A DNA stretch of 64,000 nucleotides from Haplodiscus bocki. Its lineage: Eukaryota. The stretch covers positions 26,908,001 through 26,972,000 of the forward strand of contig OZ296653.1 of the NCBI GenBank assembly GCA_965655095.1, read 5' to 3'. Made by a program: the position numbers and the translations under genes. Below are positions 6,991-41,552 of the stretch, in pieces (within the stretch, counting starts at the first letter, position 1; every line of letters starts with the position of its first letter). The notes under the pieces were generated by a model. It ran no database searches, had not been told where the DNA came from, and was given only the letters and a program-made list of their open reading frames with translations.

Positions 6991-7010
6991 ACAGATTGGA
7001 GCCTGATTGG
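6654..7010 (+). mobile_element. Truncated LTR 5' fragment of Gypsy family B
   Basis: Begins TGTCGCAGGCTGCCGCCTGTGACGG, as do the LTRs at 39581 and 45520, and follows the 45520 LTR to ggaacctgattggtaaaaaca. Confidence 0.85.
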
Positions 7011-7014
7011 TAAG

Positions 7015-7199
7015 TAAGTTTGTATATGTAGGTATAACGTATTCTCTAAAATGGGGGAAACTTGTCCAGCACTTACATTCAATTGGATTTTAGAATTTTT
7101 TATCTTCAAACAAGGGCAATGAGTTGGTTTGTGTACCTAGCTGTGTGTTGCTATAGTTTACCGTGTAGACTTGGCCGTCACAGGCGGCAGCCTGCGACA
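7015..7199 (-). mobile_element. Inverted truncated LTR 5' fragment of Gypsy family B
   Basis: ccgtcacaggcggcagcctgcgaca (ending 7199) is the reverse complement of the LTR start, with the same flanking LINE sequence as 6654 and 45520. Confidence 0.85.
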
Positions 7200-10100: not shown

Positions 10101-13100
10101 TATAGTTTGTTCTCACTTGTTTTCCAATGCCTTCGTCCGGACACGTAGAATGCTGTTTTGTCAACCCTGTCGAAATGACTTTGTAGAAAGTCCAAAAACT
10201 TTTCGCTCAACGTCCAAAATTACTTGGAAAAGGATGATTTATCCGTCAGTGTTCCTTCCCTTTCGACTTCTGAAAAAGACATTGCACCAATAGAAAACTT
10301 GTTGGGAACACAGAAAGAGAAGCAGATCGTTGGAAGCGTTCAAAAAATCTCAAAAAAGTTCAAGTAAAAATATAACAACAAAAACTGGGATCACAGAAAC
10401 GAGTTGAAAATTTTGTTTTGATAATTTCAAAACCAGGTCGAATTTGCAGAAACTTTTTTCGTCCAAAGTCCGAATAATTTTCTAAAATTTTGAACACATA
10501 GTTTTTTCTCACTTGTTTTTCAAAACGTTCTTCCTGACACGTAGAATGCTGTTTTGACAACCCTGTCGAAATGATTTTTGTAGAAAGTCCAAAAACTTTT
10601 CGCTCAATGTCTAAAATTAATTGGAAAAGGATGATTTTTATCAAAAAAAGGTAATGCTCAAAAACTTCATCCGGACACCTTAGTGTTGGGAAAGACAAAG
10701 GGCATAAACGGACAAAAAAAGTCAAATAAGAAACTAATCTGCAAAATTTGCTCTATCTGCGAGGCCTTGGGTCCATAAAAAAGTAGTTCTAATGCCTAAA
10801 CTCCAAACAAACAAAACCAACGTCGGGCCGAGCCCAAAAACCATATTTGAAAACAATCGAACAAGTCTCATATCGCCGAAAACCAAAAGTGTTTTCTGAA
10901 AAATCCGTTCTTCCGCAAACTCGCATCAAAAAGTTGTTTATCACCTCTCAAGTTGACTGACCATTCAATGAACAAGTTCGGGCGAGCCCAACAGGGTATT
11001 TAAAAACAATCAAGCATTGGTTGTAAGAACGGAAAACCAAAGTAATTTCCGAAACCGGTGATCATTCGCATGGAGAGACGTTTTGTATCTCCGAAATCAC
11101 TCAACATGTAACGAACAATGTGAGCACGACCAGGTACCATATTCAAAAATAAGTCATGGTTCCTTTTGCTAAGATGTGAAGAAAACTACATGTTCTGAAT
11201 ATCTCGTTCCCTTGCAATTCACGTTTGAATTTTCCTTATTCCACCCAAAACTTGACCTGAAAATTTTGTTGACACCAAAAGCACATTTGAAAACAAATCA
11301 CCGTTCACTGGGCTTCACTGAAAAGAAAAATACTCTCTTAAAACGTCACTTGTTCGCAAAGTCAAACCGGAAAGTTGCTTTCACAACTCGAAGATCAGCT
11401 AACTGTAAATGAACAAAATTGGGAGATCTTTAAAACACATTTGATGAATATTAAACCTTCATTGAGTAATTCTGAAAATGATCAGGCATTCTGAGAGGAT
11501 AGTTTTCTTTGGAAATGTTGTTCTTTCGAAAAGCTACATAGAACCTGATACAATATAGTCCATGAATTCAATTTTTCACTGCAAATGTGATTGAGTCCCA
11601 ATTTCGAACTTGAAAACAAGTAGACGTTCGAGCAATGCTAAAAGCAAAACTTTTTTCTGCAAAGTCGTTCCTTTTGTAAAATTACAGCCAAAAAATTCTA
11701 CCATTACGCCTTTGACTTGACATCTGCTTAAATTGATTCGAGGGAGTCCAAAAACCAAATATGAAATCAAGCGTTTCTTGCCCAGCGTTTTGAACAAAAA
11801 ACAATTGCTACATTTGTCTTTCGTGCTCAAAGTCTGAGCGGAAGATGCTTTTGCAACCCAAACTAAACTAACAAGGAATAATCATTTGAAGAGCGACCAA
11901 AAAGTTTAATTGAAAACAGTTAAGGGTACGTTGGGCAATGCGGAGAACAAAATGGTGTGTTGAACTTTTTTTCGTAAATTAGCGTCAAAAAAACTTTTTG
12001 AAACGCCCGAATTTGACTGAATTGTGCTGTCAATCCTTGGGCGTTCTCAGAAATGAATTTCGAAAACAAAAAAGCTTTCTTCAATCAATGCTGAAAAAAC
12101 TACCTACAGAAAAAAAATGTCACTTCTCAAAAACGAATCGAAAAGTATATTTTCACTCGTTATCAACTAACATTTTGACAAAGGGTCTGGAGGAGCCCAA
12201 AGACCATTTACGAAAACAAGTAAACGTTCATCGAGCTAAACCAAACACAGAATTAATTTCTAAAAAGTCCCTCTTTTTTGAATTCAGTTCAAAAAAAACA
12301 CGTTTGACCGTTCCTGACTCAACTGAACATCTCATGCTCATAAATTGGAACCGCTTTTGAAAACAAATCAACTTTTATTGCCCGACACAAAAAGATAAAC
12401 TTAGTACAACTTTTGCGTCTCCAAAAAAATCGATTTTAATTCATCAAACTCAATATTCGATGTAGCAGTCCAAAAGAAGTTTTTGAAAGGAATTTAACGT
12501 TAGTTTCACAATGCTCAAAAGCGTAAAATTTCCTGAAAAAAAAACGTTCTTTCAAACAATCCGCATCTAGGAGGGTAGTTTACAAACCCAAAGTCAACTC
12601 AACGCTTTGCAATTGGGCGAGTGTAAAAACTCTACTTTAGATAAAATATTTCTTCGCCGCAGCAAGATCGAAAAAACAAATTCCGGCAGAAACCATTTTT
12701 TTCAGATTCTTTAGAAAAAGATCGTTGTCTGAAGAACTGCGCTTTTGAAAGATCACTACACAAAATGGGGTTTAGAAAGCCGGGCGACAAAGAATTCAAA
12801 TCAAAGTTTTTTTCAACTTCTTTTACAGTTGATTATGGTACATGAGCTAAGGAAAACAATTCATTTGCAGGGCTTGGTGAGATTGAAAGTCTTTTCCAAA
12901 AACTTTAACAGTTTGCTATTGCAAGAAACAGATCTTGTATTTTAATTTGGCACAACTCAGAGCAAGTCGTTAAACATCAAACCACACAAAAATGTAATTC
13001 TTAGGTACGTTGGTTCATTCCACCTACAAAAAAATACAATGATTATACTCTGCACTCTTTGTTTTAGTGAATTAGGGTCTTTTAACGCAAAATCAGGTTT

Positions 13101-16100
13101 CCCTCAATTGTGCTTCAAAACAATTTTGCGAAAATTACATTAGTCTTTTTTGTAAAAGAGGCCAGCCTTGTGTTTGGTTTGACGGATGTGGCACCAATTG
13201 CAGGCTTAGAGGGTAACAAAATGTTTTGTAAATTGAAAAAAATCAGGGAAAGTTTGAATAAGTTTTCTGCGTCGATAGGAAAAAAAGCTCGATGGAAACT
13301 TTTAGGCTGTGCGGCAAATGGATCCAATGACACAAAAATTGCGACTCCCTTTTGAAGCCGCTGAACTACAGCGCCTCGATTTGATGACCAATACATTTCC
13401 CTGGGCAACATCGAGTTTGACATCGTTTTACGTTTGTAGATTTGATCTTAAGTATTTTTTAGTACTCTGAGAAACTGAAAGCATCCCAATATCTTCATTT
13501 GAAGCGAGCTCGAAACAAATTGAGAGAAAAAACAAAAAAACTTCTTGACTTGGTGTTAGACAATCAACTTCCTGCAAACCAGTAGGCACCCACAAAGCAT
13601 GTAACTTGTTTGCAAACAGCATGATATCTTCGTGTCCGGTTCTTGTAAGTTTCCTAATAGTACAGCGTTTCTGCATTTTTACAAAATTGATCTTTCTGTA
13701 GTGACTCTGAAATTTTACGAATCCAATGTTCGTTTTTGGTCTGCTTATGAACGTGAGTGGAATGTTGAAACTGGCTTGAAATTAGAAAGGCAGTGTGGCA
13801 CAAACGCTAGAGCCAACAACAACTGTCCCATATTCCGTACAATTGTTGCTCTTTGTACCGATTTGGGTTCCTGTACCATTTGGAATTCCAAAACTTTTGA
13901 GAATTTTAACAATTTATCGTTCTGAAATCACTAACTTGGGCATAATTAACATCAAAAAAAGACGCAACCGGAAAGTCTCCATCGCATTTACATTAGGAGT
14001 ATCATCTTTAATTTCCGTAATCCAAGAAGCAAAGTTCCTAAAAGTGGAAACAACGATTATTGACAACCTTTGTTATCAAGCACACTTGGCAAACTTCAGG
14101 GGATAACTGTGACAAGCAGATCTAGCATCAGGATCCGGAGTCACAGAAGTAAAGCACGTAGCTCACTGAGGAAGAATGAACTGGGAAGTTTTGTATTCCA
14201 ACAGAAAAGTTTTTGGAACCATCGTTCAGGTTGACAAAACGCCTTCCAGGAGAATTTGGTTAGGGGAATACAGATCATGGAAAACATTTTTTCTCATAGG
14301 AGGAAAAACAGCCTGTAAGTAGATATTGATATTGTCAATTCCCACGCATGTCAGGTTTTCAAACGATCATCATGTTTCCTGAATTTGCTCAAGGCAGCCT
14401 GGTTGCCCAGACCGAAATCACAAATGGCAAAACGAGTTCTAGATCCCTCCATTTGGTGGAACGCGCAAAATGTTTTTGAAAACATTCAAAAACAAAGTGT
14501 TCATCCAAGAGAGCTGCAACCAAAATTATCTGCTTCTGATCGGCCGTTTTCTCACAAATTATGCGATAGTAAAAAAAATGATCATTGTCAAATCACGCAG
14601 AAGTTCATTTTTTTCTCTGGGCGCTTTAATACATTATAATTTTTGAAACCAGTCCTTCGCCAAAATCTTGAACAGTCCAACTTGTTGGCATTGCGAATTT
14701 AATCACTGAGATCCTGCAAGTATTCCTATTTTACTGGCCGGTTTTTCTTCATCATCGTGCTTTTCAATGGCACTATCTCTGTCCGTGGAGTGTTTTTCAC
14801 GAAGAAACGGAACTGGCAACTGTCTCTAATTTATCGACGATAGGAGCTCGTTTTGTTGTCTCCCAAAAAAATGCGGCTTGCGAACAGTTGAGTTCCACAA
14901 ACTGTCACTTTCAGAAAAACTAGGACTTTGCGTTCACTTTCAATTGTCCCACAGAAGCTGTGAAGCAACTGATACTGAATCTAAAGACAATCCCAGTCCT
15001 TTGCACTGATGGAACTACAAAACAGAACGGTATCAAACAGTTTTCGGTTAGAAGTTGAAACCTTTGTAAGATTTGGATGATCTGACATGTCAGGTGGCAA
15101 AGTCGTAGAGACAATGCATTTCTTCATCTGATTTACGCTTCGTTTTTTTCAAATCTGAAAGCGCTTTCTGAGGCAGTGACGTTGTTTTGAAGAATGACTG
15201 GCGCCACAATATTTTCTTGGGGTTAAGGAGACCGCCAAAAAACATACAAAATAGCACAAAAAAACAATGTCATTGCCTCAGAAACGAACGCAGTGGCGTT
15301 CAGAATTGAATATAACGAAACGTAGATCAAAACGAGGAATGCATTGTCTCTACGACGTTGCCACCTGACATATCAGATCATCAACAACTTACAAAATTTT
15401 CAACTTCGAATCAAAAACTGTTTGATACCGTTCTGTTTTGTAGTTCTATCAGTGCAAAGGACTGGGATTGTCTGTAGATTCAATATCAGTTGCTTCACAG
15501 CTTCTGTGGGACAATTGAAAGTGAACGCAAAGTCCTAGTTTTTCTGAACGTGACAATTGGTGGAACTCAACTGTTCGCAAGCCGCATTTTTTTGTGAGAC
15601 AACAAAACCATTTCCTATCGTCGATAAATTTGAGACAGTTGCTAGTTCCGTTTTTTCGTAAAAAACACTCCACGGACAGAGATAGTGCCATTAAAAAACA
15701 CGATGATGAAACAATACCGGCTAGTAGAATAGGAAAACCTGCACGAGCTTAGTGATTAAATTCCCTATGTCAACAAGTTGGACTGTTCAAGATTTTGGCG
15801 AAGGACTGGTTTAAAAAGTTATAATGTAATAAGGTGACCAGAGAAAAAAATGATTTTCTGCGTGATTTGACAATGATCATTTCTTTACTATCGCATATTT
15901 TGTGAGAAAACGGCCCATCAGAAGCAGATGATTTTGTTTGCAGCTCTTTTGGATGAACACTTTGTTTTTGAATGTTTTCAAAAACATTTTGCGCGTTCCA
16001 CCAAATGGAGGGATCTGGAATTCGTTTTGCCATTTGTGATTTTGGTCTGGGCAACAAGGCTGCCTTGAGGAAATTCAGGAAACATGATGATCGTTTGAAA

Positions 16101-18334
16101 ACCTGACATGCGTGGGAATTGACAATATCAATATCTACTTACAGGCTGTTTTTCCTCCTATGAGAAAAAATTTTTTCCATGATCTATATTCCCCTAACCA
16201 AATTCTCCTGGAAGGCGTTTTGTCAACCTGAACGATGGTTCCACAAACTTTTCTGTTGGAATACAAAACTTCCCAATTCATTCTTCCTCAGTGAGCTACG
16301 TGCTTTACTTCTGCGACTCCGGATCCTGATTTTGGATCTGCTTGTCACAGTTATCCCCTGGAATTTGCCAAATGTGCTTGATAACAAAGCCTGTCAACTA
16401 TCGTCGTTTTCACTTTTAGGAACTTTGTTTCTTGGATTACGGAAATTAAAGATGATACTCCTAATGTAAAAGCGATGGAGGCTTTCCGGTTGCGTCTTTT
16501 TTTGATGTTAATTATGTCCAATTTAGTGATTTCGGAATGAGAATTTGTTGAAATTCTCAAAAGTCTTGGAATTCTAAATGGTACAGGAACCCAAATTGGT
16601 ACAAAGAGCAACAATTGTATGGAATATGGGACAGTTGTTGTTGGCTCTAGCGTTTGTGCCACACTGCTTTTTTAATTTCAAGCCAGTTTCAACATTCCAC
16701 TCACGTTCATAATCAGACCAAAAACGAACATTGGTTTCCTAAAAGTTTCAGAGTCACTAAATAAGGATCAACTTTGTAAAAATACAGAAACGCTGCATTA
16801 ATTTTAAGCTGACGAGTATCAGAGATGATGATATCATGCTGTTTTCAAACCATTTTTTTGACTGCCTACTCGCTCTCAAAAAGGTGATTCTGTAGCGCCT
16901 AGTCTGGAACATAATGATTTAATCTCTCAATTTGTTCTGCGTGCGCGTAAAAAGAAGGTACTGGGTTGTTTTCTTATACTCAGAGTGGTAAAACAAAATT
17001 TCACGATCAAATCCGCCAATGCAAAATTTTTCGGACTCAATGTTTTCCAGGAAAGTGAATTGATCTTCAAATCACGACGACTTAGTTCAGCAGCTGGTAA
17101 AAGATGTCGCAACTAAATCGTCATATGGTTCATTCGCTGCACTGCTTAAAAGTTTTCATCGACCTTTGCCACCCAAGGAAATAGAGTACTTTTTGAAAGT
17201 TTTTTCAATGTTTTTCATTTTACAAATTTTTCTGTTACCTCTAAGCCTTCAATTGGCGCCCCATCAATCACAACAAAAACAACGCCGTCCTCTTTTACAA
17301 AAAAACTAATGTAATTTTTTACAAAAAATTTTGAAGCACCAGCGAGTGAAACAAGATTCTGCCTAGTACTTATAGGATTGCTATGTTTGATGCGCTGCAG
17401 GTCAGAGATTGGCAAAAACCGTCCCATACTATTTGTTAAAGGATCCTTTTGAGGCACTCGATAAAGCTTTCATCGCTTTTTGTCAACTGTAGAGTACTGT
17501 GCGTTTTTGAAAGTTTGAGAAGTTTTTTTTTACATTAAAAAGTAGCTTGTTTTTCCTCCAAACTGCAGTATCTTTTAAAGCAATGAGGTTTCCTAAGTTA
17601 GTATAGCAAAGAATGCAGCATTTTATCAATGCAAATCATTGTAGGTGGAATGAACTAACGTACCTAACAGTTATGTATCTGTGTGGTTTGATGTTCAAAG
17701 AATTGCCTTGAAGTGTGCAAATTCATAGTACAAGGTCTGTTTCCTACAATAGCAAGCTATCTACAAGTTTTAGAAATTACTAATAGGCTCACCAGGCCCT
17801 GCAATTGAAATGTTTTCAGTGGCTCGGGTAACATACTTAAAATTTGCTGACAAGAATCTGCCAGAACAGCAACTTTTTTAGTTTTCCGTCCCCCGGCATC
17901 ATGAACCTCATTTTGTGTAGTGATCTTTTAATAGCACATTTCTTCGGACAACGCTCTTTTCCAAAAGAAGCTGACAAAAACTGATTTTTTCCAGAAAATT
18001 GTTCTTTTGAGCTCGAGGTGACGAAGAAATAATTCATCGCCAATAGGTTTATTAAGCTTGCCCAATTGCAAATTGTTGGTTTGAGTTAAGATGTGTAAAC
18101 TATCTTCCTAGATGCGGATTGTTGGGAGAACAAATTTTTCGGAAAATTTTACGCTTTTGAGCATTGTGAAACTAAAGTTAAGTTCTATTCAAAAACATTT
18201 TTTGGACTTCTACAACAAATGTTGAGTTTAGAGATGTAACATCAGTTTTTTTATGCGGACGCAAATTTTGTCCTGAAAAAATCTTTTTGTGTCGGGCAAA
18301 AGAAGCTTATCTGTTTACAAAGGTGGTTCCAATT

Positions 18335-24300: not shown

Positions 24301-25098
24301 CTGGTTTTTGGGCTCGGCCCCACGTTGGTTTTGTTTGTTGAGAGTTAAACATTGGAACTACTTTTTTATGGACCCAAGGCCTCGCACAGAGAGAGCAAAT
24401 TTTGCAGATTAGTTTTGCACATTTGACCTTTTCTGTCCACTTATGCCCTTTGTCTTTCCTATAATACAAGGTGTCCGGATGAACTTTTTGAGGAATACCT
24501 TTTTTGATAAAAATAATCTTTTTCCGATTATTTTTGGACATCGAGCGAAAAAAGTTTGGACTTTCTACGAAAATAATTTCGGCAGGGTTGTCAAAACTGG
24601 ATTCTACCTGTCCGGAGGAACGTATTGGAAAACAACTGAGAACAAACTATGTGTTCAAGATTTTAGAAAACTAATCGCACTTAGGACGAGAAAAGTTTAT
24701 GCAATTTTGAACCTTCTCCGTCAAAAACTCCTATCTGTGAAAACCCCAATTAAATCTAACAAATCGGTAAGCAGCGTGTTCAAATCCTATCACAATCTAT
24801 TTTCGTATACTTAAACCAGAAAAAAAACATTTTTGTTTCAAACATTAAAATCAAGTCCGTCCTATGAGAGTCCTTTGAGCCACACCGGCGGTGACAATTT
24901 GGCTCTTCGCCGCTTGTTATCACGTACAACGTGCCATTTAGTCTGATATGTTGCTGTGTAGTTACACTAGGATCTCAGTACTCAATCCCATACTGTTGAT
25001 GCAGCGAAAACTCATGACTCATTTGTTTCAAGAAAATTGACGGAGCTTCCGACTTTTGGCTTACAAACAACATGCTGAACGTCCATGACTTGTACGTC
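18335..25098 (+). repeat. Three diverged tandem copies of a ~2.2-2.3-kb unit (~18335-20643, ~20644-22921, ~22922-25098)
   Basis: The block aagtccgtcctatgagagtcctttgagccacaccggcggtgacaatttgg...aaacaacatgctga recurs at ~20381, ~22697 and ~24853. A single inverted copy lies at ~9650-12345. Confidence 0.88.
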
Positions 25099-27059
25099 TG
25101 TCGCAGGTTGCCGCCTGTGACGGCATGATCTACTCCGTCAATTACAACGGGCAGAACTCAGTCACACAGAGCTACGCTCTGCCCTTATTTGAAGACTAAT
25201 ATAATAGAACTAGCCTTTAATAAACCGCTGGAAAAAAACCCCCCACCACTTTGAAGTTATATTTTTATATATACTTATATACTAATATATAAATATATAT
25301 ATATAATCTTACAAATATTTATGTATTTATGCGCAAAATCCATACAAATATCGATGAAGCTTGTATCATGAAGGAAAGGTCATAGACAAATGTTTATAGT
25401 GCTCAACTTATTTGCAGTCTTATACTCAAATTTGATTGGTCAAAGACAAGCGATCGTATCAAACACTGACCAAACAGAAGCGCCGCCTAAACATGGTCAA
25501 AATTGGTCACTGGGACCTAATTTTGACCACTTTGCTCAGTGCCAGTGGTCGCTTCCAAACGAAAGGCGAAATACGGCCAAATGAAACCAGAAAGCCAATG
25601 TATGAACAGACATAATTAAAAATGTTGCTATGTACTTATATAAACATATAATTATGTGATTATGTGTTGTAAAATTATTTAGTGCCAATAATTATTAAAT
25701 CCTGAGTGAAAAATATTACCTAGTCAAAAGACGGTCATTGTGCCCACTTTTGACCACCATACTTTGACCTAAAATTAAAACCTGTGTATAAACCTTAATA
25801 TTATAATCATTGCCATATTTAGTATATTATAACTATATTTAACCATCCATTATATGAAATAAGCATGCAAACATGGTTTTATTATCCCTGAACATTTATC
25901 CAGTTTCCATGACCATATTTTGGTGGTCATGGTTTTGCGGCATATATTCTTTGATGCTACCCATATTACTATTTTTAAAACTAACGTCATGATGACGAAA
26001 CATATATTTCGGGTTAAACCTCTTTGATGTTGTTTATATTACTATTTTTAAAACTGACGTCATGATGACGAAACATAGTTCGGGTTGAACCCCCTTTGAT
26101 GTTTAATATAAATAGAACCCGAGGACATGACGTCAAAGAAGTGAGCCCTCCAATTGGACAGCGAAGATGAGGAAAAGGGGGCGAACCTAAAAGAAAAATC
26201 ATCGCCAGAAGAGTGTTTTTCCATCCTGAAAACAGTTCACTGTAACGATCATTTAAACTGATGCAATTTATTTGTGGATTATCTGTATTGTAAGAGAAGA
26301 AAACTGCCCTCTTCAAAACAGACGATTATAATACTCTTTGAAACTGACATTATTCTTTGTCCCTGTTAAAACACTTTACAAACATTGTAACTTGAAGTAT
26401 CATTTCATTTTTGTGTCACTGTTGACTTTCGCTGTTATTACAATTCAGTTATTAAACAAACATGGTTTCTACCAGAAAGAAAAGGCAGTCAAGCAAAAGA
26501 CTCCTCAACCAATTAGATGATTTTGATCAGGACGTGATCATTGGCAACACCACAAGCGAGAGGCCAGAAAATGTTGTGGTCAATGGGGGTGTTGATGACC
26601 AGGATTTTACCGGTGGTACTTCTAATGTTAGTTCAATAGTTAATGAGAACGCATTGAATGTGAAAACTTTGGAAAGGTGTTTTAACGAAAGGATTGATAG
26701 GGAAATGAGCAATATTGTGGACACAGTTGAAGATAGGATACAGAATGCGGTTTTGACCGCCATTGATAACATTGTCACTCCTAAAATTGAATTAGCTATT
26801 AGGTCAATAAATGCATCCTCTGGACAAGATGTGACCAGTGCGTCTGGAAACTCAGAACGTAGGGAATATGAGGGGATTAACGCCTCTTTTGAAAACGCAT
26901 CTGCAAACAACAGAACATTAGGTATGGCTAATACGAACGATGAAACTCGCCACGATTTTCATGACGGAGTGAGCGAATTACCGGTCTTAGAGGCACAGTT
27001 TGACCGGCAACTAGCTACTCACCACATGCCGTCAGGAGCTAGTAGCGAAGTTCATCACA
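25099..27059 (+). repeat. 5' LTR of family A element
   Basis: TGTCGCAGG...GAAGTTCATCACA. Colinear with 39581-41541, differing by about a dozen substitutions counted by eye. Confidence 0.95.
25964..26160 (+). promoter_or_regulatory. Putative LTR promoter/enhancer: ~73-bp direct repeat x2, CRE-like TGACGTCA (26055, 26128), TATAAATA (~26107), CCAAT (~26150)
   Basis: Motifs read directly. TGACGTCA also occurs about 300 nt upstream of gag in the family-B LTR (46637). Function is inferred. Confidence 0.45.
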
Positions 27060-28435
27060 TGGTGACAGGAGTTAAAGAACGCCACGACATGCTGACAGAA
27101 GGTTCACAACAGATACACAACCGTCATCACATGGTGACAGGAGTTAAAGAACGCCACGATATGCTGACAGAAGGTTCACAACAGATCCACAACCGTCATC
27201 ACATGATGACAGGAGCTAAAGAACAAATTCATAACCACCATGACATGGTGGCAAGAGGTGCAGAAGAGTTTCGCAATAGTCATCACATGGTAACAGGACA
27301 AACAGCCCACATAAACCAAATCCCTGAGTTCTTGACTGGACGCACTCAAACATCACGCAACCCGTCATCTCACCAATATCAGAACCTGTCAACACAAGTA
27401 TCACAAGACAACAATTTACCAGTGGTCGAACATACACCAACACATCAAAATTTAGACGCAAACAACTCCATCAATCGTCTAGCTGACGCAATTGCTGGAA
27501 TTACCACCCAACAACCATCACAAGCAACCATAATGCTCAAACCAGTATCCACAAGCACACTATCTTTCGATGGCAAAAATGAGAAATTCGAACTATTTGA
27601 AGACCTTTTTCACACAATGCTCAAAATGCAACCTGAAAAGACAGAAGCCATGAAAATTAACCATTTTCATGCTCATTTACGAAAAGAAGCACTTCAAACA
27701 TTCAGAAACATCAGTGCAGTCAATAAAAAAACTCTTGATGACGTATTAATTGTTTTCCGACGCAAATATGTCAAACCCGAATCACAAGCTACAGCTAAAC
27801 ACAAATGGCACAAACTTACATTCGATCCCAATACAAAATCACTCCCTGATTTCTTAGAAGAGCTCAACGAATGTGCCGAAAAAGCGTTCGGTGACAACGC
27901 CCAACACATGATTGACAGCTTATTATACGCAAAACTACCACCCCATTTGAAAAGATCACTCAACTTAGCTCATTTGGAAAACGGCACGTATGACCAGATA
28001 GTGGCACATCTTGAAAGAGAGCTAGAACTCAGCGGCTTAGAAAATGATGGTGAGTTGACAATACCCACAATGACAACCGTTCCACTAAATGATAACCAAC
28101 AAAACACTGAACAAACAAAAGTAGTATGCTACTACTGTAAAAAACCAGGCCACGTAATCCGAGATTGCCGTAAACGAATGAGAAAGGAACAGGAACGGGG
28201 GAATGATCCTTCAACCCAAAAGATGAAACCTTCGACATCTAAAACATATGCACCATGTCCTCATTGTCAACGGACAAATCACCCTCCAGAACAGTGTTGG
28301 AGCGGTCCTAACGCCGCTAACAGACCTAAACGGTTCAAACAGGCGTATCCAGAAGACAATCAAAATGATGGGCAAAACCATGGGAATTTGACCTATTCAG
28401 GACCATCATCAATTCTCAAAAACTCTTTAAACTAA
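26462..28435 (+). CDS. gag: Gag polyprotein (657 aa) with two CCHC zinc knuckles; start codon lies inside the 5' LTR
   Basis: CYYCKKPGHVIRDC and CPHCQRTNHPPEQC knuckles, capsid-like FDGKNEKFELFEDLF region, and position upstream of pol. Confidence 0.92.
   Translation: MVSTRKKRQSSKRLLNQLDDFDQDVIIGNTTSERPENVVVNGGVDDQDFTGGTSNVSSIVNENALNVKTLERCFNERIDREMSNIVDTVEDRIQNAVLTAIDNIVTPKIELAIRSINASSGQDVTSASGNSERREYEGINASFENASANNRTLGMANTNDETRHDFHDGVSELPVLEAQFDRQLATHHMPSGASSEVHHMVTGVKERHDMLTEGSQQIHNRHHMVTGVKERHDMLTEGSQQIHNRHHMMTGAKEQIHNHHDMVARGAEEFRNSHHMVTGQTAHINQIPEFLTGRTQTSRNPSSHQYQNLSTQVSQDNNLPVVEHTPTHQNLDANNSINRLADAIAGITTQQPSQATIMLKPVSTSTLSFDGKNEKFELFEDLFHTMLKMQPEKTEAMKINHFHAHLRKEALQTFRNISAVNKKTLDDVLIVFRRKYVKPESQATAKHKWHKLTFDPNTKSLPDFLEELNECAEKAFGDNAQHMIDSLLYAKLPPHLKRSLNLAHLENGTYDQIVAHLERELELSGLENDGELTIPTMTTVPLNDNQQNTEQTKVVCYYCKKPGHVIRDCRKRMRKEQERGNDPSTQKMKPSTSKTYAPCPHCQRTNHPPEQCWSGPNAANRPKRFKQAYPEDNQNDGQNHGNLTYSGPSSILKNSLN
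27020..27307 (+). repeat. In-frame tandem array of eight LTR-end/primer-binding-site-like units (CAYSAYA-TG(G)TGACAGGAG consensus); active PBS at 27060
   Basis: Units start at 27020, 27053, 27083, 27125, 27155, 27197, 27239 and 27281 (spacings 33, 30, 42, 30, 42, 42, 42 nt) and encode H(H/D)M(V/L/M)TG-like peptides. Confidence 0.85.
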
Positions 28436-28500
28436 AAAAGCCACGACTCCAATGGGCAGATTACACATCAGTCAGACAATATGTTATATCTGACCCACCC
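28426..28500 (+). promoter_or_regulatory. Programmed -1 ribosomal frameshift signal (T TTA AAC plus downstream stem)
   Basis: Heptamer 28426-28432 is in correct X XXY YYZ phase immediately before the gag TAA. The -1 frame is open from there into the pol ORF. A GTCAGA...TCTGAC inverted repeat lies at 28471-28494. Confidence 0.85.
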
Positions 28501-31500
28501 CCTACAATATATCACTCTCATCAAACCCTCAACACAGGAATTCCATCAGTTGTCTGGCAGCAACAAATGGAAAAAGCCTATATTCGAAGATACAATACCA
28601 CGCATGTCATTCACAAAACATATCCAGCGTACGAATACGACTACACAGACAACTTCGACACTTACTTCAGACCCCTTGCAGAAGTCGTTGCATACGACCC
28701 ATACTTTGTTGACCCTCAATATGGATTGGATCCCTATTGGGATGACGAAATTTATGATCAGGACAAATTGGAGTACAAAGATACTTACAATAAACCTAAT
28801 GATCAGATCGAATCCGATGATCCGATCACGGATGCACATGTATCACACGCACTACGATACGCAGTGATAGATTTATGGACAGTCAATCCACAATTACCTG
28901 ACACATCACCGTTACCACACTTCCGACCGAGACCACCAAACCAACAAAGGCAAAAAGCAGTCATCGATGACCAAATTTTACCACAGCTCCAGGTAACGCC
29001 AGACGGACTCACAAGGTTTCTCCCGCTCTCAACAAATTTGCCATTAAAAAATAAACGAAAAATGCTTTATTTTCCAATGGATTTCGGGGAGTTAAATATT
29101 GATGGCCTCATAGATACAGGTGCTTTGTCAAGCGCCATTCCGGAAGCCGACTTACGCAAAATTCGATTACTCGCCCCACATACAATATTAAATGAAGGCC
29201 CACCACCTGAGTTCCAAATTATGGTTGCCAATGGACAGTTAGAAGCACCTACTGCAACAGTAGAATTGCAATTCGAAGTCGGTGACATTACGTTCAGAGA
29301 AAAGTTCATAGTTATGACGAACCTCACAAGCCCTTTGATCGGTCTCTTATTCCTACAACGCAACAGTACTATTCTAGATATGCGTCAAGGAATTCTGAAT
29401 TTTCCCTTCTTTTCAATGCAATTGAAAAATGAAGATCGGACATACCCAAACGTTATTGAACCCATAATCAACCCAGTAGATACTACGCTACAACCGGGAA
29501 AACGAACCACAATTTGGGTAAAATCACAAATTTACACGGAAAACGAAGCGACAGGCATAATCCAACCTTCGCCACTTCTGGAAAACGACGAAGATCTCCT
29601 TATTTGCCCAGCAATTTCGTCAACCCAAAACAACAGACATATGGTCCAAATCAGCAATTTTCTAGACCATCCGTATACTCTCAAAAAAGGAACACATATG
29701 GCAAATTTCTCCATATTGACTCCTGAACAAACAAAGCACATTCGACCAGTCAACCCTACTTCGGTGAGACATTTCCTCAACAGTAATCACGATGACGCTA
29801 TTCATTACATAAATAGCCTTCTGAAGACATCGCAACCGGATGAAGTCAATGAGACCTACTGGTTTCCAACGACACAAAATCCGGGCAATGAAAAGGAACA
29901 TACGCCCATACAGACACGCATTCTTAATGAACTACGAGAATTGGAACAATTAGAAAAATTAAATCCACTTGAAAATACCAAATCCCGAAGCCAATTTCTA
30001 TCTAATTTCGATTGGACAGATTCTACTTTACAACCGGATGCCAAACAAGCCGTTGAAGACCTGCTCGTGGAATTTCATGATATCTTTGCGCGACACCGTT
30101 TTGACATCGGAATCAACACAGAATTCAAAGTACAACTCACACCACTAGACAATAGGCCTGCTTACAGTCAAAGCCTCCCAGCTCCGATAAATCTCAAAGA
30201 TGATATCCTTGTGGAACTAGCCCTATTACACAAGTATGGTATCATCACAACACTACCCTTCAGCAAATATGCTAGTCCAATATTCGCACAAAGGAAACCA
30301 AATGGGAAACTACGCCTATTAGTTGACCTTCGGAAAATAAACACACTTATTGCAGATGATTACATCAACAACAACCACCCAGTCAGTACATTAACAGATG
30401 CAGCACAACACATGGCTGGGAAAAATCTGTTCTGCAAACTCGATTGTTCCCAAGCATATCATTGCCTCCAAATGGCCGACCAACAATCAATTGAGCTCCT
30501 TGCATTTAATTTTGCAAGCAGAACATTCGCGTACCGAAGATTGGCACAAGGACTTAGCCGTTCCCTATCAGCATTTTCAAGCTTCATACGCGAATACCTC
30601 GACCCAGTCATCAAAGCTGATCAATGTGCACAATACGTCGACGATATTGGCATAGCCGCCAATACCCCCGAACAATTAATCAAAAACTTACGAGCAGTTT
30701 TCCAATGCTTGCGGAACGCTGGCCTCAAACTCAGCGTGACCAAATGCCATTTCGGAGTACAAGAAGTAGATTTCCTTGGACGAACAATAACAACCAAGGG
30801 GGTTGCCCCTCAAAAACAAAAGATTGCTAAATTCCTTGAAAAAGTCAAATTTCCACGATCCAAAAAAGCACTCCAACGATACATCGGATTCTTGAACTAT
30901 TACCGGAATTATATACTTAGATTGGCAGAACGGCTCACCCCGTTCTTCCAGCTACTCAAAACAACCGATGCCAAAGACAAAATACCGATTACACCTGATA
31001 TCATGAAAGAGTTCAGGGAAATAAATGACGCTTTAGACCGATGTTGCCAATTGGCATTACGTCAGCCATTACCCGGTAAACAACTGGTCCTAATGACCGA
31101 TGCAAGCTTTCAAGCAGCTGGTTACGCAGTATTAATTGAAGACGATCCAAACCAAAAGTTTACTTCAACACGCAAAACTTACGCTCCTATAGCTTATGGT
31201 TCAAAAACATATTCACCATCCCAAATCAAAATGCCCATCTACGCAAAAGAAATTTTAGCCATCTATATGGCCTTCAAAGAATTTGGACATATCTTTTGGG
31301 GCGCCACTAAACCAGTGATCATCATGACAGACAGCAAATCGGTCACCAGATTCTTTCAAACAAAGATGATCCCCCCACCCTTATGGAATGCCTGTGACTT
31401 TGTATTACAATTCAACTTTACTATCGCACACATTCTAGGTAAAATGAACACTGCAGCAGACTTCTTATCTCGTTTGGAGATGGACCCTAATGAAAAAATC

Positions 31501-33790
31501 ATTCTAAAGATCAGAGAAGACATTCAAATAAAACCAATCGAAGTAAACATTGAATCTACAGGCATTGCACAAGAAGAACCGGTCTTCTTTGATCCCACAG
31601 ACCAACAAGAGACCACGGAAAAAGAACTCTGGAAACGTAAAGAAGAAGTACGAAATGCCATACCTAATGAACCACCAGTCATAACAGTGTCCTGTTATTA
31701 CGCCAATGACCTACACAAAGATACAACAATTGTGAACATAGCACAATTGACGAAACCATCACGCATACTCATCGAACAAGACTCAGATCCAACCCTACTA
31801 AATTTCAAACGTGAAATGCTGGGATTACCATTTGACGAACAAATTTTACTAAACGACGCACGTTACATGCACTACTCCAGAAACAAGAAGCGTATCATCA
31901 TCAAGGATGACATTCTCTACCGACAAAACTATAACGATATCGGCGAAGTCAGTCACCTACAAGTCCTTTTGCCCGGACAATTACTTAAAGTGTTATTACA
32001 ATCATTACATGGGACAGCTGGCAAACACCCAGGTATCTCAAAAATGATGCGAGAAATTCGTCAGAAATACTATTTCACTTCAATTGCACCCCACGTTCGA
32101 AACTGGGTTCGTGACTGTGAGATATGCATCCATGACAAACGCATAAACAACACACGAATAACCCCAGAAGTAATCCACATCCCAGAATGGGACCTCGGAC
32201 CAGAAGATCTCATGCAAATTGACTTATTGCCAGAATTACCGCCAAGTGGAGGTTATGAAAATATCATTACGGCGATAGACGTATTTTCGAGATACGCATT
32301 CGCCTATCCAGTATCTAACCCCACAGCAGTAAATACAGCCAAAGTTATCATAGACATTATGACAAGACATGCTTATTTGCCTACCCTCATTATAACAGAC
32401 AAAGGAAGCGTTTTCGTCTCCCAAATCATACATGAAGTCGCTGAAATATTGGGCATCAATTTGAAACATGCCACAACAAAACATGCACAAACCATCGGAG
32501 TCCTAGAACGGGCCCATGCCACAATCAAGACCTCCTTGAAAATGGCATCAGGCGAACACAGAAAACAATGGCATAAATACTTACCTATCGCCATTTTGAA
32601 TTACAACACGACATACCATTCCAGTATCGATTGTGAACCAAGCCGAGTATTCCACGGCAGAGTACCACACAATATTTTAGACCACAAACTTGGATTAAGA
32701 TTCAATCCCAATATCACACCTACTACAGACTTTGCTGAAGAATTACTACGGCGAACCAAAATCCTCTACGACAAAACCAAGAAAAACGTCATGCAGTCAT
32801 ATATCAAATACAAACGATATTACGATAAAAAAAGCAAAAGCTTCACCTTTAAAAGAAAAAGATTACTGCTTTATCCTTCAGCCAAATGCAGACCATCAAG
32901 GGTCAAAAATACCGTTCCGTGACTTCCGATGGATTGGTCCCTACATAGTAGAAAAAGTATTACCAAACAATAATTACATTGTGCGAAAACTCAACACAAA
33001 CAAAACTCAGATTCTACACAGAATTCGTCTCCGAAAATACAACCCTGAAAAACGCCCTGAAGCTAATTATTCGGAAGTGCCATGGCAAACCGACGACAAT
33101 ATTGTTGTCCCGCAGGACGATTTATATACAATTGCATGGGAAGCTGAATTCGGCGGACACCTCTTTGATCTTCCCATCATATATACCGATCCCAACGCAA
33201 TTGACTTTGATGAAAATCACACACAAGGACCAGATACAGTCATTGTCCCACGCTCTTATTTCCAAAACTCAAACAATGGTCAAAATAGGGAAATTTGCCC
33301 CATTTCTGACCAACCAGTACCGCGAACTTTAACACCTACATCGAATGGTCAAAATCAGGAAATTGAGACCAGTACTGACCCAACTCAAAATGATAGCACC
33401 AAACACATTTATGACTCAAGTACCGACGCTGAAATTACATGTAAACCTGTCACACAACCACCATTAACTATGAGTGACACTTCATCAACGCTTGATGACA
33501 ACATTCCCACAGCTGAAAACACTTCCAAAAATGAGTCCGACCACTCTCGAGGCGGTAAATACAACCTACGCCCCAATCCCAATCCTAATTACTCAGAAAT
33601 ATACAGATATCGATGTGTGCAACATTTTATTTTCAGCCCCATTTTTGCGCGTCATTATCATTTTTCATTCTATCTTTTGCGCACACTCTACTCATTTCTT
33701 TCCTTTTTCTTTTCTTGGGGCATATACAAAATTATCAAGAACGTCAACAAAGCCAAACTACAATCAATCAAAAAACAACAAACTAATTAA
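28426..33790 (+). CDS. pol: Pol polyprotein (protease, RT, RNase H, integrase with GPY/F tail); one frameshift at an A7 run (~32827-32833)
   Basis: LIDTGA (protease), LRLLVDLRKIN / KLDCSQAYH / YVDD (RT), TDAS (RNase H), H-x5-H...CEIC and QID/TDKG/LER (integrase). The frame continues as KAKASPL...RWIGPYIVEK in ORF 32732-33790. Confidence 0.93.
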
Positions 33791-33815
33791 TAACAACAAC
33801 AGCTTTAATTAAGAG

Positions 33816-36800
33816 TCAGGACGATTCAGTGTTCGAAGTTTTGCGCTTTGATCGCAACTTCCCAGATAGCAAATCAGCTACTCCACGATAATGCGTCTTA
33901 CTAATATCGATGCGAGGCCGCTGCGCTGGACGACGACGCTGTTCTGGTAGTCTCTCAGAGACAAACACTGGTTCACTCAACGATGCAGATGACTCCACAT
34001 CACTAGCAACCTTCACCGCCTTGTATGATTTCTCAAGCTCAGCTCGAATTTTCTCATAATCGTGATAATTGACAAATTCCCAGGGATTATAACCACACTG
34101 CAGAGCACAATCGCCAAAAGTCTCGAGCAATTCCATGCAACACGAAATCGACTCGGGATCAGTGAAAAAGTTCTCCTCAGTATCACAACCCAAAAGATAC
34201 CCCTGCAGCGGCTCCACAACTGACGACAAATCAACACTCGCCACTCCAACTTTACTTGAGCCAAGCGAAACATCAGGCACTTTTGGGGTAATATGACCCA
34301 AACACAAACAACTCAATTTGAACAGATCCCATGTATACTGTCTGCGTGACAATTCAGGGCAAGACGACAGGAAAGAGACCATATCGTCAACATCTGGACC
34401 AACACCCAACTCGTTCAGATAAACATGTCTCACATCGTCTACGAACTCTATGTAGTCGTCAGCGTGCACGTTCCGCAACTCCCGTGCAACCCAACCCCGG
34501 GAACTGAAGCTTTGGAATAAATGTTGGAAGCAGTCAACAGCAACAGTCTTCGGTAACTTGAACAAAACTCCATAATCAAAGCAAGCTAGCCCAATAACCA
34601 AGTCTGACTTGAATGCGGGATGTCTCACTAACTCCTTAACCACATATTTAACGTATTGTCTGCCCTGGTCAATGAAAGGATTGAAAGACTCGCCCATCAC
34701 CGTCTTCGCCACACTATCCGACTTCGCCTTCTTCCCACGCTCACGCTCCACATCAATTTTTGTCTTGGCGACCTTCAACACTTTGGACCGGAATTCTGTC
34801 TTTCGCATAAATTCAAAGATGCTCAACAGCTCACCCACAGAAAAATCAAAGGATCGCAATGCATCCCAATCCCATTCAGATGGCAGACAGCCACGAGACA
34901 CAACCCTCCGCAACAAACGATGTAAGAAGTCACACAGTTGACCGCACAAGAAAAACCCTTGGTCACGACTGGGCACTGTTGACCGTTTGAAAGCCTCCCG
35001 GTACTCTTGCACAATCACTTTGAACAGTTCCAGACGAGCTTCGAAATAAGGATCACCAGTGACTTGACTATCCAAAGCTTGAACCTAAAATACGAGACAA
35101 TTAAAAACGTTATCACTTGCATTCAACCACATAACAACTATACCCACCCTCCCCTGCACGTGCTGGAACTCTTGACGTTGACTAGTACTGCTGATATATG
35201 CCACAATTTGGGGCCAATGCGCAATCATCTCTTGAACAACAAGGAAAGCAGTGCACAACTCTAATTTTCCATCTTCCAGAGCCTGCAAACATACAATTAT
35301 CAGTCAGCACTTATACTACCAAGACAACCAAAGGGCAACATTACCATTACCTACCATTCTGAAGTACTGTGTTGACTGCACCCAGCGTTCATCGAGGAGC
35401 CCTTTTAACCGCAACAAAAGAGCACGCAACATCGAACACATGTCGATCCTCCCCATCACACTGAAGCTGGGTTTGTGCAACAAACGCTCAAACTGCATAG
35501 GTGTCAACGAAAACGGGTACTGAACACCCGCCTTCCGACCAGGACTTTTATCCAGAACTTTCACAAAGTCAGCATTTGAGCCGCCACAACAAATGATGGT
35601 CGCATCGCCAGAAATCGCACTCAACAATCGGGAAACAAGATCAATATAGCTTTTTGTGGGCGGAACATCCCTTCCACAATGTAACATGGGCAGGCACACC
35701 AAACGCTTGCCCTCCCAAAAACACAGACTCAATGTGCGGCGATGTGAGCTCACAGAAAATTCAATGGAGTATGCCCCCTCACGAGCAATACTAGATGACA
35801 CATGTTTCACCAACTCCAGAAACAGATGATGCAGCAATCCCTGAAATAGCACAAATCGCATGAAAATTAATACCCCCCATACTCCAGCCGGTCAAATACA
35901 AAAAATCCCGACGACTTTTGACTCTACATGTAATACCCACCCAAACAGACTATCAATCCATGGGCAAAAGATGGCACAAATACCAGATTATGACCATAAC
36001 AAAATATGCTCATATACGTACGGAAATGTGGCTCGAGCTCCAATTGAAGTCAGCAGTGCTCGCAGAATGACCCGTCAACACTCCCACCTGGGTCCAGTAC
36101 TCCTCCAACGTCCACAATTGACCTCCTCCACGCAGGAAAATTAACAACAACTCAATCTGTATCAAAGTCCGTGAATTTACAGAGGTAAATGTAAAGGGCT
36201 TCTCTTCCACAACATAATAGAACGGACGTTTGTGATCCAACTCCGGCACATCCAAGTGCATGAACAGCTCCCTCTCCGCTTCCAACTTCGACCCATACAG
36301 TGTACGTCCATCCGAGCCACGTACCTTTGAAGGATAGTACCGGGCACGAAACCTCTGATCAGCCCTCAGATGATGCTCCCGTTGGAAGTGGCGCTTCAAC
36401 TCATATAATCCTCGAGATCTCATGGACACGTTCCTCCTACAAAGCATGCAGTAGAAGCAATGACGGTTCTTCAATGGGTTTTCTGGACCAGTAGCAAAAA
36501 CTTTCGCAAACGGGGCGAGCTCCAGCATCTCCTCGGTGAAAACATACCCACCACCATCTGACCCACTGGGCGAAATTGGGTTCGGTCGACCTTCTCGTGA
36601 CCACTTATACAATTCACCTTTTTTCAGCACATCGGAACGAATTTGCCCAAGAGTCTTCAAACTGTCCGTGTCATTAAATTTGTTCACTTCTGTTCGAGAG
36701 AAACCCAAAACTGCATCTGCCTGACGACTCGAACATGGTTGCTGTAATTGATCACTATCCAATGATTCCGTAATTGTTGGCAAAGAATAGAAAGATCGAG

Positions 36801-37935
36801 AAGCCACACTATCCACAACTGTAGACCCTGACCCACTACGTGAAACAGACCGCCCACTTCCCCTCTCACCAACATTTCTCCCAGGCTTTCCACCAATCTT
36901 CAAAAGAATATCCTCCAGCATTCCAAAAGTGGCCAAAGAAACTTCTAATCCGACGGCCCTGGCAAATTGTATCATTTGATCCGAACTCAGTCCGGTCAGT
37001 TGCTGATGCGGATCCAATTGCACAGGCGGATTGTCAGCGAAGCACTCTTTCAACAGGGTCCTTGCAGACTCACTGGGGTAGTATTTCGACCGCCCACCAC
37101 CCAAACCAGGCTGCGCTGTGGCTCCAGAAACAGCTGGAAGATCAGACTCTACAACTTCAAAAACCCACCCCCCACTCAAATTATCGACTCGTCTTCGGGC
37201 AATTGACTCCAACTCTGACGTACCATACTCTGTGTCATCCAGTCGGGAACTACTAGGGAACGACTGCCCAGTATCTGACATACCAATCACAGGATATCTA
37301 TTACACACCGATTTCCCAATTGAGTCTTCCACATCAAATGCCACACTTTTTGAAGGCCGTTCATCTGCCACGTCAAGCTCCCCATCACACAACGGCCGCT
37401 TCATCCCGACACCAATCTCCTGGCCCCCCAACTCCGCACGCAAAATCTTATCCACCTGACTCCTGGGAAATTCATTGTCACCAGTTACCATGCCACGCCC
37501 TGTATTATCCCGATTAACCAGATTCGAATCCAGCAACTCAAGCACTCCAGCAGGATCAACCTCCGCAATACTCTCTATTCCATCACCCCCCAGCGCTTCC
37601 AGTTTATCTCGCAAAAACTTCTGCAGTCCTTCACTTCCTTCGTCACTACTCGACAACAGACACTCTTGACTACCAACAGCAAAACTCTCCTTATCCACAT
37701 TCCCGCGTTCTTCACTCATTGTCTTTTTACCACCCGTCACTTGCAAGACTGCCAAACTTTTCGACGGAGAAGTTCCTGTCTCCTCAATCATCACGATTTC
37801 TACTCCGCTCCTCCGGGGAAGATCGGGGTAGTTCTCACTTTCTTCAGTGTTGCAGTCTTTAGGCACGTTGGATTCGTTCTCTAAACAATGGAAACTGATA
37901 AATTTACGTGGCAACTCGCCAGCATATTCGCCCAT
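33816..37935 (-). CDS. Predicted spliced antisense gene, ~1267 aa, BED zinc finger / hAT-transposase-like; exons 37935-36022, 35840-35355, 35282-35148, 35084-33816
   Basis: Four consecutive minus-strand ORFs are joined in frame by three phase-0 GT-AG introns: TCC|GTACGT..TTTCAG|GGA, ATG|GTAGGT..TTGCAG|GCT, AGG|GTGGGT..TTTTAG|GTT. FYCMLCRRNVSMRSRGLYELKRHFQREHH is a BED-type C2H2 finger. The start codon is uncertain (first ATG used; the frame is open to 37983). Confidence 0.75.
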
Positions 37936-38898
37936 TTCGAAACCGGATATCCGTAGAGGAAACACGTGTTCGTTCAAAATCAAATCTATCGCGTGTTATC
38001 CTAGCAGTGAAGAGAGAAAAATTGCTCTGGCCAAGCAATCAAACTGCCTTCACTCATCAAGTAGTTCTTGATTCGACATATTCCGACATAATAAAAAGTA
38101 TCACAAAACCCAACACTCACCCATTCAGTAACAGCGATGAAATCTCTGGATTCTCTAAGGACGCTGGCTCTGTCTCCAATTTGTTCGAACACAAGTTAGC
38201 AGAATTCCAAAAACAAGTCCAAAACACGTGGTAAAACAAACAATAATCAATTCAATCACAATTCAAAAACAAGATAATCGAATGCAATATCAATTCAAAG
38301 TTAAACAATTTCAAGAGATGAGAGAGTCGTGGCTGTATAATATGGATTTTGTCATATTATGGTCATTATTGACATGATATTTACCTATCTAACTATATCT
38401 ACATATTTACAAGCTGGGTCAACTTCTGCCAGAGTTGCCCAATATTTGACCTTCGGAATTTCCATCTTTACAACTTTCATCAAAACTTCATTCATTTTCT
38501 TTAATTTTCCTTCGCATCATTATGCTTCACGCTCATTGGCTCTCACTGTTACAAAAGGTGAGCTTACACTCATCAAAGTGAAGTGCCGCTTCAGATTCAC
38601 TACCACGGTCACTTACGGTTATTGATGACCACTTGAAATCCAAGAGTCAATACAACTGTGAAATAAATTACTTAATATCAAAACATGATTTCTTTTAACC
38701 TAACCGCCTTAACCCAACCAACCCTCTCAATTCAACGAAAGTCAAAAACCCGCCATATTTTCCCCAAAAAAACCCTTCAGAATTTTACCCAACTTTCATT
38801 CATACTTTCAGTCTTCAACAAAAACGGTCGCTTTACTTCAAAACTTAGTTTATTCAATCACGGCACTGAAACATTTCAAGAAAAGAGCCTTCGCACAT

Positions 38899-39681
38899 AT
38901 GACTACCACATTCCGTATAGAAGGAGATGAAGAGCCCATGGCAACGGAGCCGATATATCTCTCAAGCGATGAGAGCGAATATTCGACTCCCAACACAACT
39001 CCAGATCACCAACTTGAATGCATTCATCCTGACTCGATCAACCAGTTGATAGCCTCACAACTGGAACAACGGTCAAATATGGGCGCAGAGACCATCGTCT
39101 ACCCGCCAACCCCAAACACGTCTATAATCTCTGCCGACGACGACCCAATGAACCCCACTCCAATAATTGGAAACCCTGATCACTATACGCCTCAGATCCC
39201 ACCCAGACGCCATCACCCAATACAACTTTGCCAACATGTGCAACCTATCCCCGATACGCCGCAATCTCCAACCCCGGAAGATCGTGGGCAGTCAGACGAC
39301 TTCTATCCCGACAATATCCCACTACACAACCCCCCCAATATTGTAGCAGTAGCAGACGACTTGCACAACCTAACATTACACCCTCATCCGCACCGTAACG
39401 AAGTGGTTACAAGTTGTTTGGTATGTGGCAAATCATACGACCAGGTGATCGAAGAAACTGTTGCAGACTACCTCGATCAGACATCACAAACGGGTGAGAC
39501 AGTGCGGGAACGACAAATCAAGAGAAATGCATTCATCGATGGCGTTCAGAGCGGAGTCTTCACTTTTATCCTCCCGGGAGTGTCGCAGGCTGCCGCCTGT
39601 GACGGCATGATCTACTCCGTCAATTACAACGGGCAGAACTCAGTCACACAGAGCTACGCTCTGCCCTTATTTGAAGACTAA
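38899..39681 (+). CDS. Accessory ORF3 (260 aa; Pro/acidic low-complexity N-terminus, CLVC motif), terminating 101 nt inside the 3' LTR
   Basis: ATG-initiated open frame followed by AATAAA at 39701. The C-terminal SQAAACDG..Y..NY...LPLFED peptide is conserved in the family-B LTR. Confidence 0.7.
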   Translation: MTTTFRIEGDEEPMATEPIYLSSDESEYSTPNTTPDHQLECIHPDSINQLIASQLEQRSNMGAETIVYPPTPNTSIISADDDPMNPTPIIGNPDHYTPQIPPRRHHPIQLCQHVQPIPDTPQSPTPEDRGQSDDFYPDNIPLHNPPNIVAVADDLHNLTLHPHPHRNEVVTSCLVCGKSYDQVIEETVADYLDQTSQTGETVRERQIKRNAFIDGVQSGVFTFILPGVSQAAACDGMIYSVNYNGQNSVTQSYALPLFED

Positions 39682-41541: not shown

Positions 41542-41552
41542 ACGTCCATTAG
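40944..41552 (+). pseudogene. Gag N-terminal ~199 codons carried by the 3' LTR, running into flanking DNA and stopping after NVH
   Basis: Near-identical to Gag residues 1-199; diverges exactly at the LTR end. Confidence 0.85.

Follow-up and report, generated by a model that had tools for sequence, protein, structure and literature searches.

How can the gag gene of a retrotransposon begin inside its LTR, and what becomes of a reading frame that is carried along with every 3′ and solo LTR? The question arose from a 64,000-nt stretch of the Haplodiscus bocki genome (hereafter the window), for which a preliminary description had placed the start of gag ~600 nt inside an LTR. We consider it probable that the window holds a member of a Ty3/gypsy family whose ~2-kb LTR encodes the first 185–246 codons of Gag under selection, and whose LTR boundary has likely been shifted by primer-site switching.

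Self-comparison of the window delimited a 16.4-kb Ty3/gypsy element (25099–41541, hereafter element A), bounded by a TSD and by direct LTRs of 1961 bp each (25099–27059 versus 39581–41541; 99.3% identity, TG...CA termini). The features of this element and of a related copy, B, are as follows:

25094–25098, no strand: left TSD ACGTC, flanking the 5′ LTR
25099–27059, + strand: 5′ LTR, 1961 bp, TG...CA (self-comparison)
26462–28435, + strand: gag ORF, 657 aa, codons 1–199 within the LTR (ORF list, domain search, dN/dS)
28369–32922, + strand: pol frame, PR-RT-RH-IN, ending where another + frame (32699–33790) overlaps
28426–28432, + strand: TTTAAAC heptamer where gag stops, pol lying in the −1 frame; putative frameshift site (sequence)
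33816–37995, − strand: antisense ORFs of 422, 191 and 661 codons stop-to-stop, no Pfam match, recurring in other copies
38899–39681, + strand: 3′ sense ORF, 260 aa, crossing the PPT region into the 3′ LTR (ORF list, dN/dS)
39581–41541, + strand: 3′ LTR (self-comparison)
40944–41552, + strand: Gag N-terminal frame as duplicated in the 3′ LTR, 199 + 3 codons, the latter from junction, TSD and flank (ORF list)
41542–41546, no strand: right TSD ACGTC, flanking the 3′ LTR
45519–48635, + strand: decayed copy B, with a 5′ LTR to ~47503, ATG at 46939 and a broken gag, interrupted at ~48635

Element A is a member of Ty3/gypsy (Metaviridae). The best solved-structure matches of its RT were to Ty3 RT, with foamy-virus RT a close second, and its pol does not have the integrase-before-RT order of Ty1/Pseudoviridae. 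The gag product matched zf-CCHC over the cut-off and Retrotrans_gag weakly and under the cut-off (E 0.0025). We take the TTTAAAC heptamer at the gag stop to be of the slippery type. A long polypurine tract is absent 5′ of the 3′ LTR, where the sequence is GGGAG after a pyrimidine run and CCCCCC (39565–39580); the GGGAG junction is kept across LTR pairs and is itself protein-coding. One or two long antisense ORFs were present in all 20 other copies viewed (L091–L110), one of them often exactly 422 codons long. The longest antisense ORF has a Cys/His cluster, presumably zinc finger-like.

The surrounding DNA is rich in repeats, with nested large inverted repeats (e.g. 13087–17362 and 5099–8746) at 3630–25100 and 41544–45512, three tandem 2.2–2.3-kb units at 18.3–25.1 kb, and a 953-bp repeat relationship with 8701–9653 that element A interrupts. 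A decayed gypsy-type element of another family, with a gag beginning MAAVAQST, interrupts copy B (48635–54200). Tried as an outgroup for the position of the gag start, this family at 48.6 kb had copies too broken to inform.

The ATG at 26462 opens a 657-aa gag ORF with a CCHC knuckle, of which 598 nt (199 1/3 codons) are intra-LTR. The PBS follows the LTR directly, so that 598 nt separate this ATG from the LTR end downstream. The duplicate frame at 40944 likewise runs across the TSD, as had been described, but it gains just 3 codons and is closed by a stop at 41552, for a total of 202 aa. The gag start context is not a chance occurrence, because we found at least 1,147 exact copies of it in the genome (control 0) and the same start ATG in 41/41 copies (the window's own and 40 that were fetched as matches to the N-terminal peptide); 29 of the 41 have an intact gag of at least 567 aa. 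Copy B had been presented as a second family with the same layout and a conserved peptide. The layout held (LTR from 45519, ATG at 46939, PBS-like sequence at ~47504), whereas the intact second family did not: B is decayed, with a stop at codon 134. Its identity to element A is 71%, and its best relatives reach 71% at the amino acid or 79% at the nucleotide level; it is a decayed, divergent member of element A's family.

Selection on the LTR codons and the putative domain they encode

The LTR-borne frame had been suggested to be under selection, and a dN/dS comparison agreed with this. Between 11 subfamily representatives, pairwise dN/dS of LTR codons 1–186 was 0.23 (CI 0.18–0.30; subfamily groups set by eye, pairs non-independent, CI bootstrapped over codons), with block values of 0.09 for codons 1–30, 0.39 for 31–62, 0.12 for 63–120 and 0.35 for 121–186. 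For the same representatives, the capsid had a value of 0.07 and the NC region one of 0.19. In four shifted frames, dN/dS was 0.94–1.17 and each copy contained 6–32 stops; an antisense frame with shared third positions gave 0.31. Substitutions were also enriched at third positions of the LTR codons (0.27 versus 0.13 and 0.13), and the gag frame was stop-free. An accidental open frame, conserved on account of RNA or DNA signals, would fit the zero synonymous changes at codons 114–116, around an AATAAA, but is almost certainly wrong: it is refuted by the third-position bias together with the confinement of stops to the other frames. That the LTR codons encode the Gag N-terminus under purifying selection is well supported.

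Within single elements, the differences that separate the 5′ from the 3′ LTR were neutral (28 of 115 synonymous, 30.7 expected, p = 0.67; 27 pairs), and a cruder dN/dS between 5′ and 3′ LTRs was 0.67 (20 of 21 pairs). As these intra-element differences arose after insertion and are neutral, selection acts on the lineages that transpose, which is what one would expect of LTR codons that belong to Gag.

The opposite end of the LTR is coding as well:

25101–25199, + strand: U3-encoded tail of the 3′ ORF, 32 codons plus stop, present in both LTRs (dN/dS 0.37)

In most intact copies, the 3′ ORF stops 98 nt inside the LTR; in element A it extends 100 nt into the 3′ LTR. The 80 codons that precede the LTR had a dN/dS of 0.18 (11 copies), and the part within U3 one of 0.37 (15 copies), where the other frames gave 1.1 and 1.7. 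The LTR is coding under selection at both of its ends. The 3′ ORF had no Atlas match.

One could imagine the LTR part as a shared first exon that is spliced to the 3′ sense ORF, yielding a CERV-like RNA-export protein. The ORF is under selection, a donor-like GTRAG lies at ATG+507 in phase 0 in 41/41 copies of one set, and the window has a TTTCAG at ~38811 that is in phase with this site and open to the ATG. Yet the acceptor reads TTTCAA or TTCCAA in most of 20 other copies, the frames upstream of the 3′ ORF ATG hold stops or vary in phase between subfamilies, and the donor is not universal, being lost in L111 and in the young intact subfamily L153. We regard such an exon as quite unlikely.

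As to what the LTR codons encode, the preliminary description had pointed to a basic N-terminus and a helical segment, and both proved to be conserved:

26474–26500, + strand: basic motif RKKRQSSKR, codons 5–13, putatively NLS- or RNA-binding-like
26627–26818, + strand: predicted long amphipathic helix, residues 56–119 (AlphaFold; dN/dS 0.12 for codons 63–120)

The basic motif falls within the most constrained block (dN/dS 0.09, codons 1–30). With a 40-row alignment, AlphaFold predicted the helix at residues 56–119, with block-mean pLDDT of 72–93 over residues 71–120 and low values elsewhere; a single-sequence fold of full Gag had a pLDDT of 41. The hydrophobic period of the helix peaks at 3.75–3.9, not 3.5, so that it falls short of a demonstrated canonical heptad coiled coil. 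Searches for homologues of the N-terminal domain outside the family gave no Pfam match and a best Atlas score of 0.76, of low recognition; there was no viral fold match at E ≤ 0.001, and none of the best 150 representatives was named. The LTR-encoded part may nevertheless be a true N-terminal Gag domain, combining a basic localisation or RNA-binding patch with a long oligomerising helix, and it could work like the coiled-coil N-terminus of Cer1 Gag.

The att+PBS array and the LTR boundary

Immediately downstream of the 5′ LTR, as well as within it, the gag frame reads through primer-site sequences:

27020–27037, + strand: decayed att+PBS unit within the LTR, at ATG+565, the LTR end of other subfamilies
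27060–27072, + strand: active PBS for tRNA-Leu(CAG), 13-nt match, junction CAC ATG GTG in the gag frame
27073–27298, + strand: six further att+PBS-like units, in frame, with spacings of 30 and 42 nt

Directly beyond the 5′ LTR, 13 nt match a host tRNA-Leu(CAG) at its 3′ end, added CCA included. The complement to this tRNA spans 11–13 nt, and in L023 it reaches 17/18 nt; ARAGORN called a tRNA-Leu(CAG) gene in 2 of 10 scanned loci. Ends resembling the 3′ end of tRNA-Leu(CAG) also occur in tandem at G000:C1:161.07–161.14 Mb, with ~1,000 matches on one strand at ~424-bp spacing. The junction of LTR end and PBS is read as His-Met-Val in the gag frame. Both the LTR end (att) and the PBS are therefore protein-coding, in keeping with the earlier claim, with 185–246 LTR codons preceding the junction.

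This junction offers an ATG of its own, and Gag might start mainly there (Met200), with the upstream frame a minor extension. CA followed by TG always yields an ATG, all LTR-end classes have this ATG in the gag frame, and the product would be of ordinary Gag size. However, two of the LTR blocks have dN/dS of 0.09–0.12, near that of the capsid, the sequence context of the start at 26462 is conserved, and a scanning ribosome would meet several in-frame ATGs earlier. A main start at Met200 is thus highly improbable, and we retain the ATG at 26462 as the gag start.

The combination of LTR end and PBS, which encodes His-His-Met-Val-Thr-Gly in the gag frame, repeats as a tandem array. In intact copies, 144/146 att+PBS-like sites share a single phase, with spacings mainly of 30, 33, 42 and 72 nt; the background was 0 matches in 36,400 positions. 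L175 (G000:C719) has ten such units in the gag frame. The LTR itself ends at different units in different copies. Among the 28 usable of 29 fetched LTR pairs, the end lies at ATG+556 (1), +565 (11), +598 (13), +640 (1) or +670 (2); for five pairs, the BLAST end was off by 1–7 nt by chance and the end was read at CATCACA. A solo LTR with a TSD (L161) ends at +739 and has four scored units, the last one least decayed. The 28 pairs and this solo LTR thus define classes of 185, 188, 199, 213, 223 or 246 codons (+1 nt), and the longer classes hold decayed PBS sequence at +565, the end of the short class.

Because the LTR-end classes differ and decayed PBS copies persist inside LTRs, it is likely that PBS switching has shifted the boundary outward, in steps of whole codons. 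PBS-derived sequence inside LTRs would most simply have originated outside them. None of 8 pattern matches showed an LTR ending at a downstream array unit. The subfamily tree is unrooted and resolved only in part, and there are mosaic copies (the LTR and capsid parts of L112 fall into different groups); the direction and number of shifts consequently rest on the pattern of decay. This ratchet accounts for at most 58 codons, not for the first 188.

We propose that the att+PBS unit becomes duplicated when plus-strand transfer occurs out of register or when slippage takes place, and that, since the array is Gag-coding, duplications would survive only as multiples of three. The first intact att+PBS would fix the LTR end; once it has decayed, the next unit would prime, and the LTR would gain 11–58 codons. 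The first 188 codons may have entered the LTR by relocation of the PBS into gag, or by overprinting of U5 upstream of the junction ATG.

Possible expression of the LTR-borne frames

The LTR contains candidate signals for reaching the gag ATG and for polyadenylation:

26107–26155, + strand: promoter-like module of a TATA-like element, TGACGTCA and CCAAT, recognisable across subfamilies; putative function
26444–26461, + strand: acceptor-like TTCAG, preceded by a pyrimidine-rich tract and followed by an A-rich context of the start; candidate acceptor for SL trans-splicing, or candidate initiator
26806–26811, + strand: AATAAA within the LTR codons; candidate poly(A) signal

The promoter-like module lies 310–355 nt upstream of the gag ATG, with several ATGs between it and Met1. 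In 81 of 86 non-independent copies, an AG follows a pyrimidine-rich tract (64% versus 40% further upstream) 13–14 nt before the ATG; the initiator-like TCAGT, present in 75 of the 86, fits almost as well. The host genome has at least 1,387 matches (control 0) to an SL motif published for an acoel (available text of PMC9911081). Trans-splicing of the SL to the conserved AG, or initiation there, would make the gag ATG the first AUG, and unprocessed RNA from the upstream start could serve as the genome. In genomic DNA, there were 0 matches to retrocopied SL-to-gag junctions and 0 to a poly(A) tail after the coding AATAAA.

Several further observations touch on these signals. Most subfamilies have AATAAA or ATTAAA ~20 nt past the stop of the 3′ ORF (25219–25224 in the window), which makes this another candidate poly(A) signal. 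Just past the acceptor-like AG lie 8 bases (26449–26456, TTATTAAA) that recur near the 3′ end of the SL motif; this overlap of TTATTAAA may be chance in AT-rich DNA. The intronless host BBS5 (1332–2375), roughly equidistant (52–59%) from named animals, has an acceptor-like T-run and CAG 5 nt before its ATG. The SL motif also stands at the head of numerous dispersed inserts, which belong to a few recurring families (L117–L140), one with a PHD-finger-like ORF, and 0 of these 24 loci viewed had a GT donor after the motif. These inserts look like SL-capped retrocopies or non-LTR elements.

The same frame is present in every intact 3′ or solo LTR. Of 20 unpaired matches fetched, 11 were solo LTRs with a TSD, 3 were 3′ LTRs and 6 were ambiguous. 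Read-through tails of the 11 solo LTRs ranged from 2 to 72 codons. In a larger set (67 short-frame rows, hand-picked from 150), the median tail was 14 codons, equal to the median of 14 for random host DNA; 13/67 tails had at least 50 codons versus 10% expected, and some of the long rows may be broken 5′ copies. The proposal that insertions generate productive Gag–host fusions was not supported, as the tails match random host DNA and the 5′/3′ LTR differences are neutral. Admittedly, every intact 3′ or solo LTR frame enters the flank, two of the tails in the set of 11 solo LTRs have 52 and 72 codons, and the donor-like site at ATG+507 could splice to host exons. Still, the typical tail is no longer than chance provides, element A's own is 3 codons, and the donor-like site is missing from L153 and L111. 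It is very unlikely that insertions routinely make functional Gag–host fusion proteins.

Alternatively, solo and 3′ LTRs might express a standalone fragment of ~200 aa that would hold the family in check by binding full-length Gag, as in Ty1, where a truncated Gag is trans-dominant (available text of PMC7175516). Each LTR has a promoter-like module and an acceptor-like AG, at least 1,147 start contexts are intact, 11 of the 20 unpaired matches are TSD-flanked solo LTRs whose frame is open, and the fragment would include the long predicted helix. We nevertheless think this unlikely: the 28 synonymous changes among 115 across 27 LTR pairs are as neutrality predicts, Gag fully accounts for the selection between subfamilies, and the Ty1 fragment derives from an internally initiated transcript, not from the LTR. 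We also doubt a broader reading, in which the LTR would be a portable cassette of promoter, acceptor, ATG, NLS and helix, fed by the ratchet, and more than 1,000 LTRs would make Gag-fragment mRNAs that tune assembly. If true, the family would possess a copy-number sensor that grows stronger with each insertion and outlasts loss of the internal region, with its own or passing host transcripts turned into SL-capped mRNAs. Our preferred reading is that the LTR codons serve Gag, and that the frames of 3′ and solo LTRs would be passive by-products with short random tails.

Comparison with known systems

LTR elements make up about half of the genome in the host group (available text of PMC9911081). 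Ordinary LTR anatomy is described in PMC3601003 (available text), and the ICTV profile of the sister family likewise has non-coding LTRs of ordinary anatomy (PMC8515867). Literature searches by phrase, narrow in scope, returned nothing on a long LTR-encoded Gag domain or on tandem PBS switching. A gag start upstream of the PBS is known from Ty1, and the scale and the ratchet of element A are unmatched in the literature searched, which is weak evidence of absence. Annotation tools mask LTRs or seek gag only between them, so an LTR-encoded Gag domain would be missed. The in-phase att+PBS arrays record how an LTR boundary can move, and they form a natural series for asking which primer site defines the LTR end.

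In size, element A resembles Ogre and Tat of plants and Burro of planarians, which exceed 15 kb, have LTRs of at least 2 kb and carry extra sense and antisense ORFs of unknown function (PMC6431247, PMC6317226). They differ in that their LTRs are treated as non-coding and a gag start inside them goes unmentioned in the available text of the same two papers.

Cer1/CERV of C. elegans, a gypsy element in an SL trans-splicing host, has an acceptor before its ATG (available text of PMC3315495 and PMC10309623), where element A has the acceptor-like AG. Cer1 further shares a long helical Gag N-terminus, a basic NLS-like motif and an unexplained ORF before the 3′ LTR (available text of PMC10309623). 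This likeness is one of described features. The Cer1 LTRs, at 492 bp, are shorter, and its 5′ UTR runs beyond them (variants at nt 957 and 1175 are called 5′ UTR), so the Cer1 ATG lies outside the LTR. Element A is also without conserved sites for a CERV-type splice. In Cer1, the SL1 acceptor is used by a spliced RNA, not by the 8-kb gag-pol RNA (available text of PMC3315495), and the analogy is therefore no proof that gag is trans-spliced in element A.

A coding PBS is known from Ty1 of Saccharomyces cerevisiae, which has about a dozen codons upstream of this site. Its PBS lies inside GAG, at RNA nt 94–104 (available text of PMC4974528), and the statement in the preliminary description that gag is established to begin downstream of the PBS was therefore too strong. 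As in element A, the PBS is part of the GAG ORF and the start codon precedes it (same source). Ty1 differs in its copia domain order and its initiator-Met primer, where element A has a Leu primer. Element A, unlike Ty1, places 185–246 codons upstream of its PBS, which form a conserved domain of their own and lead into an in-frame array of att+PBS units.
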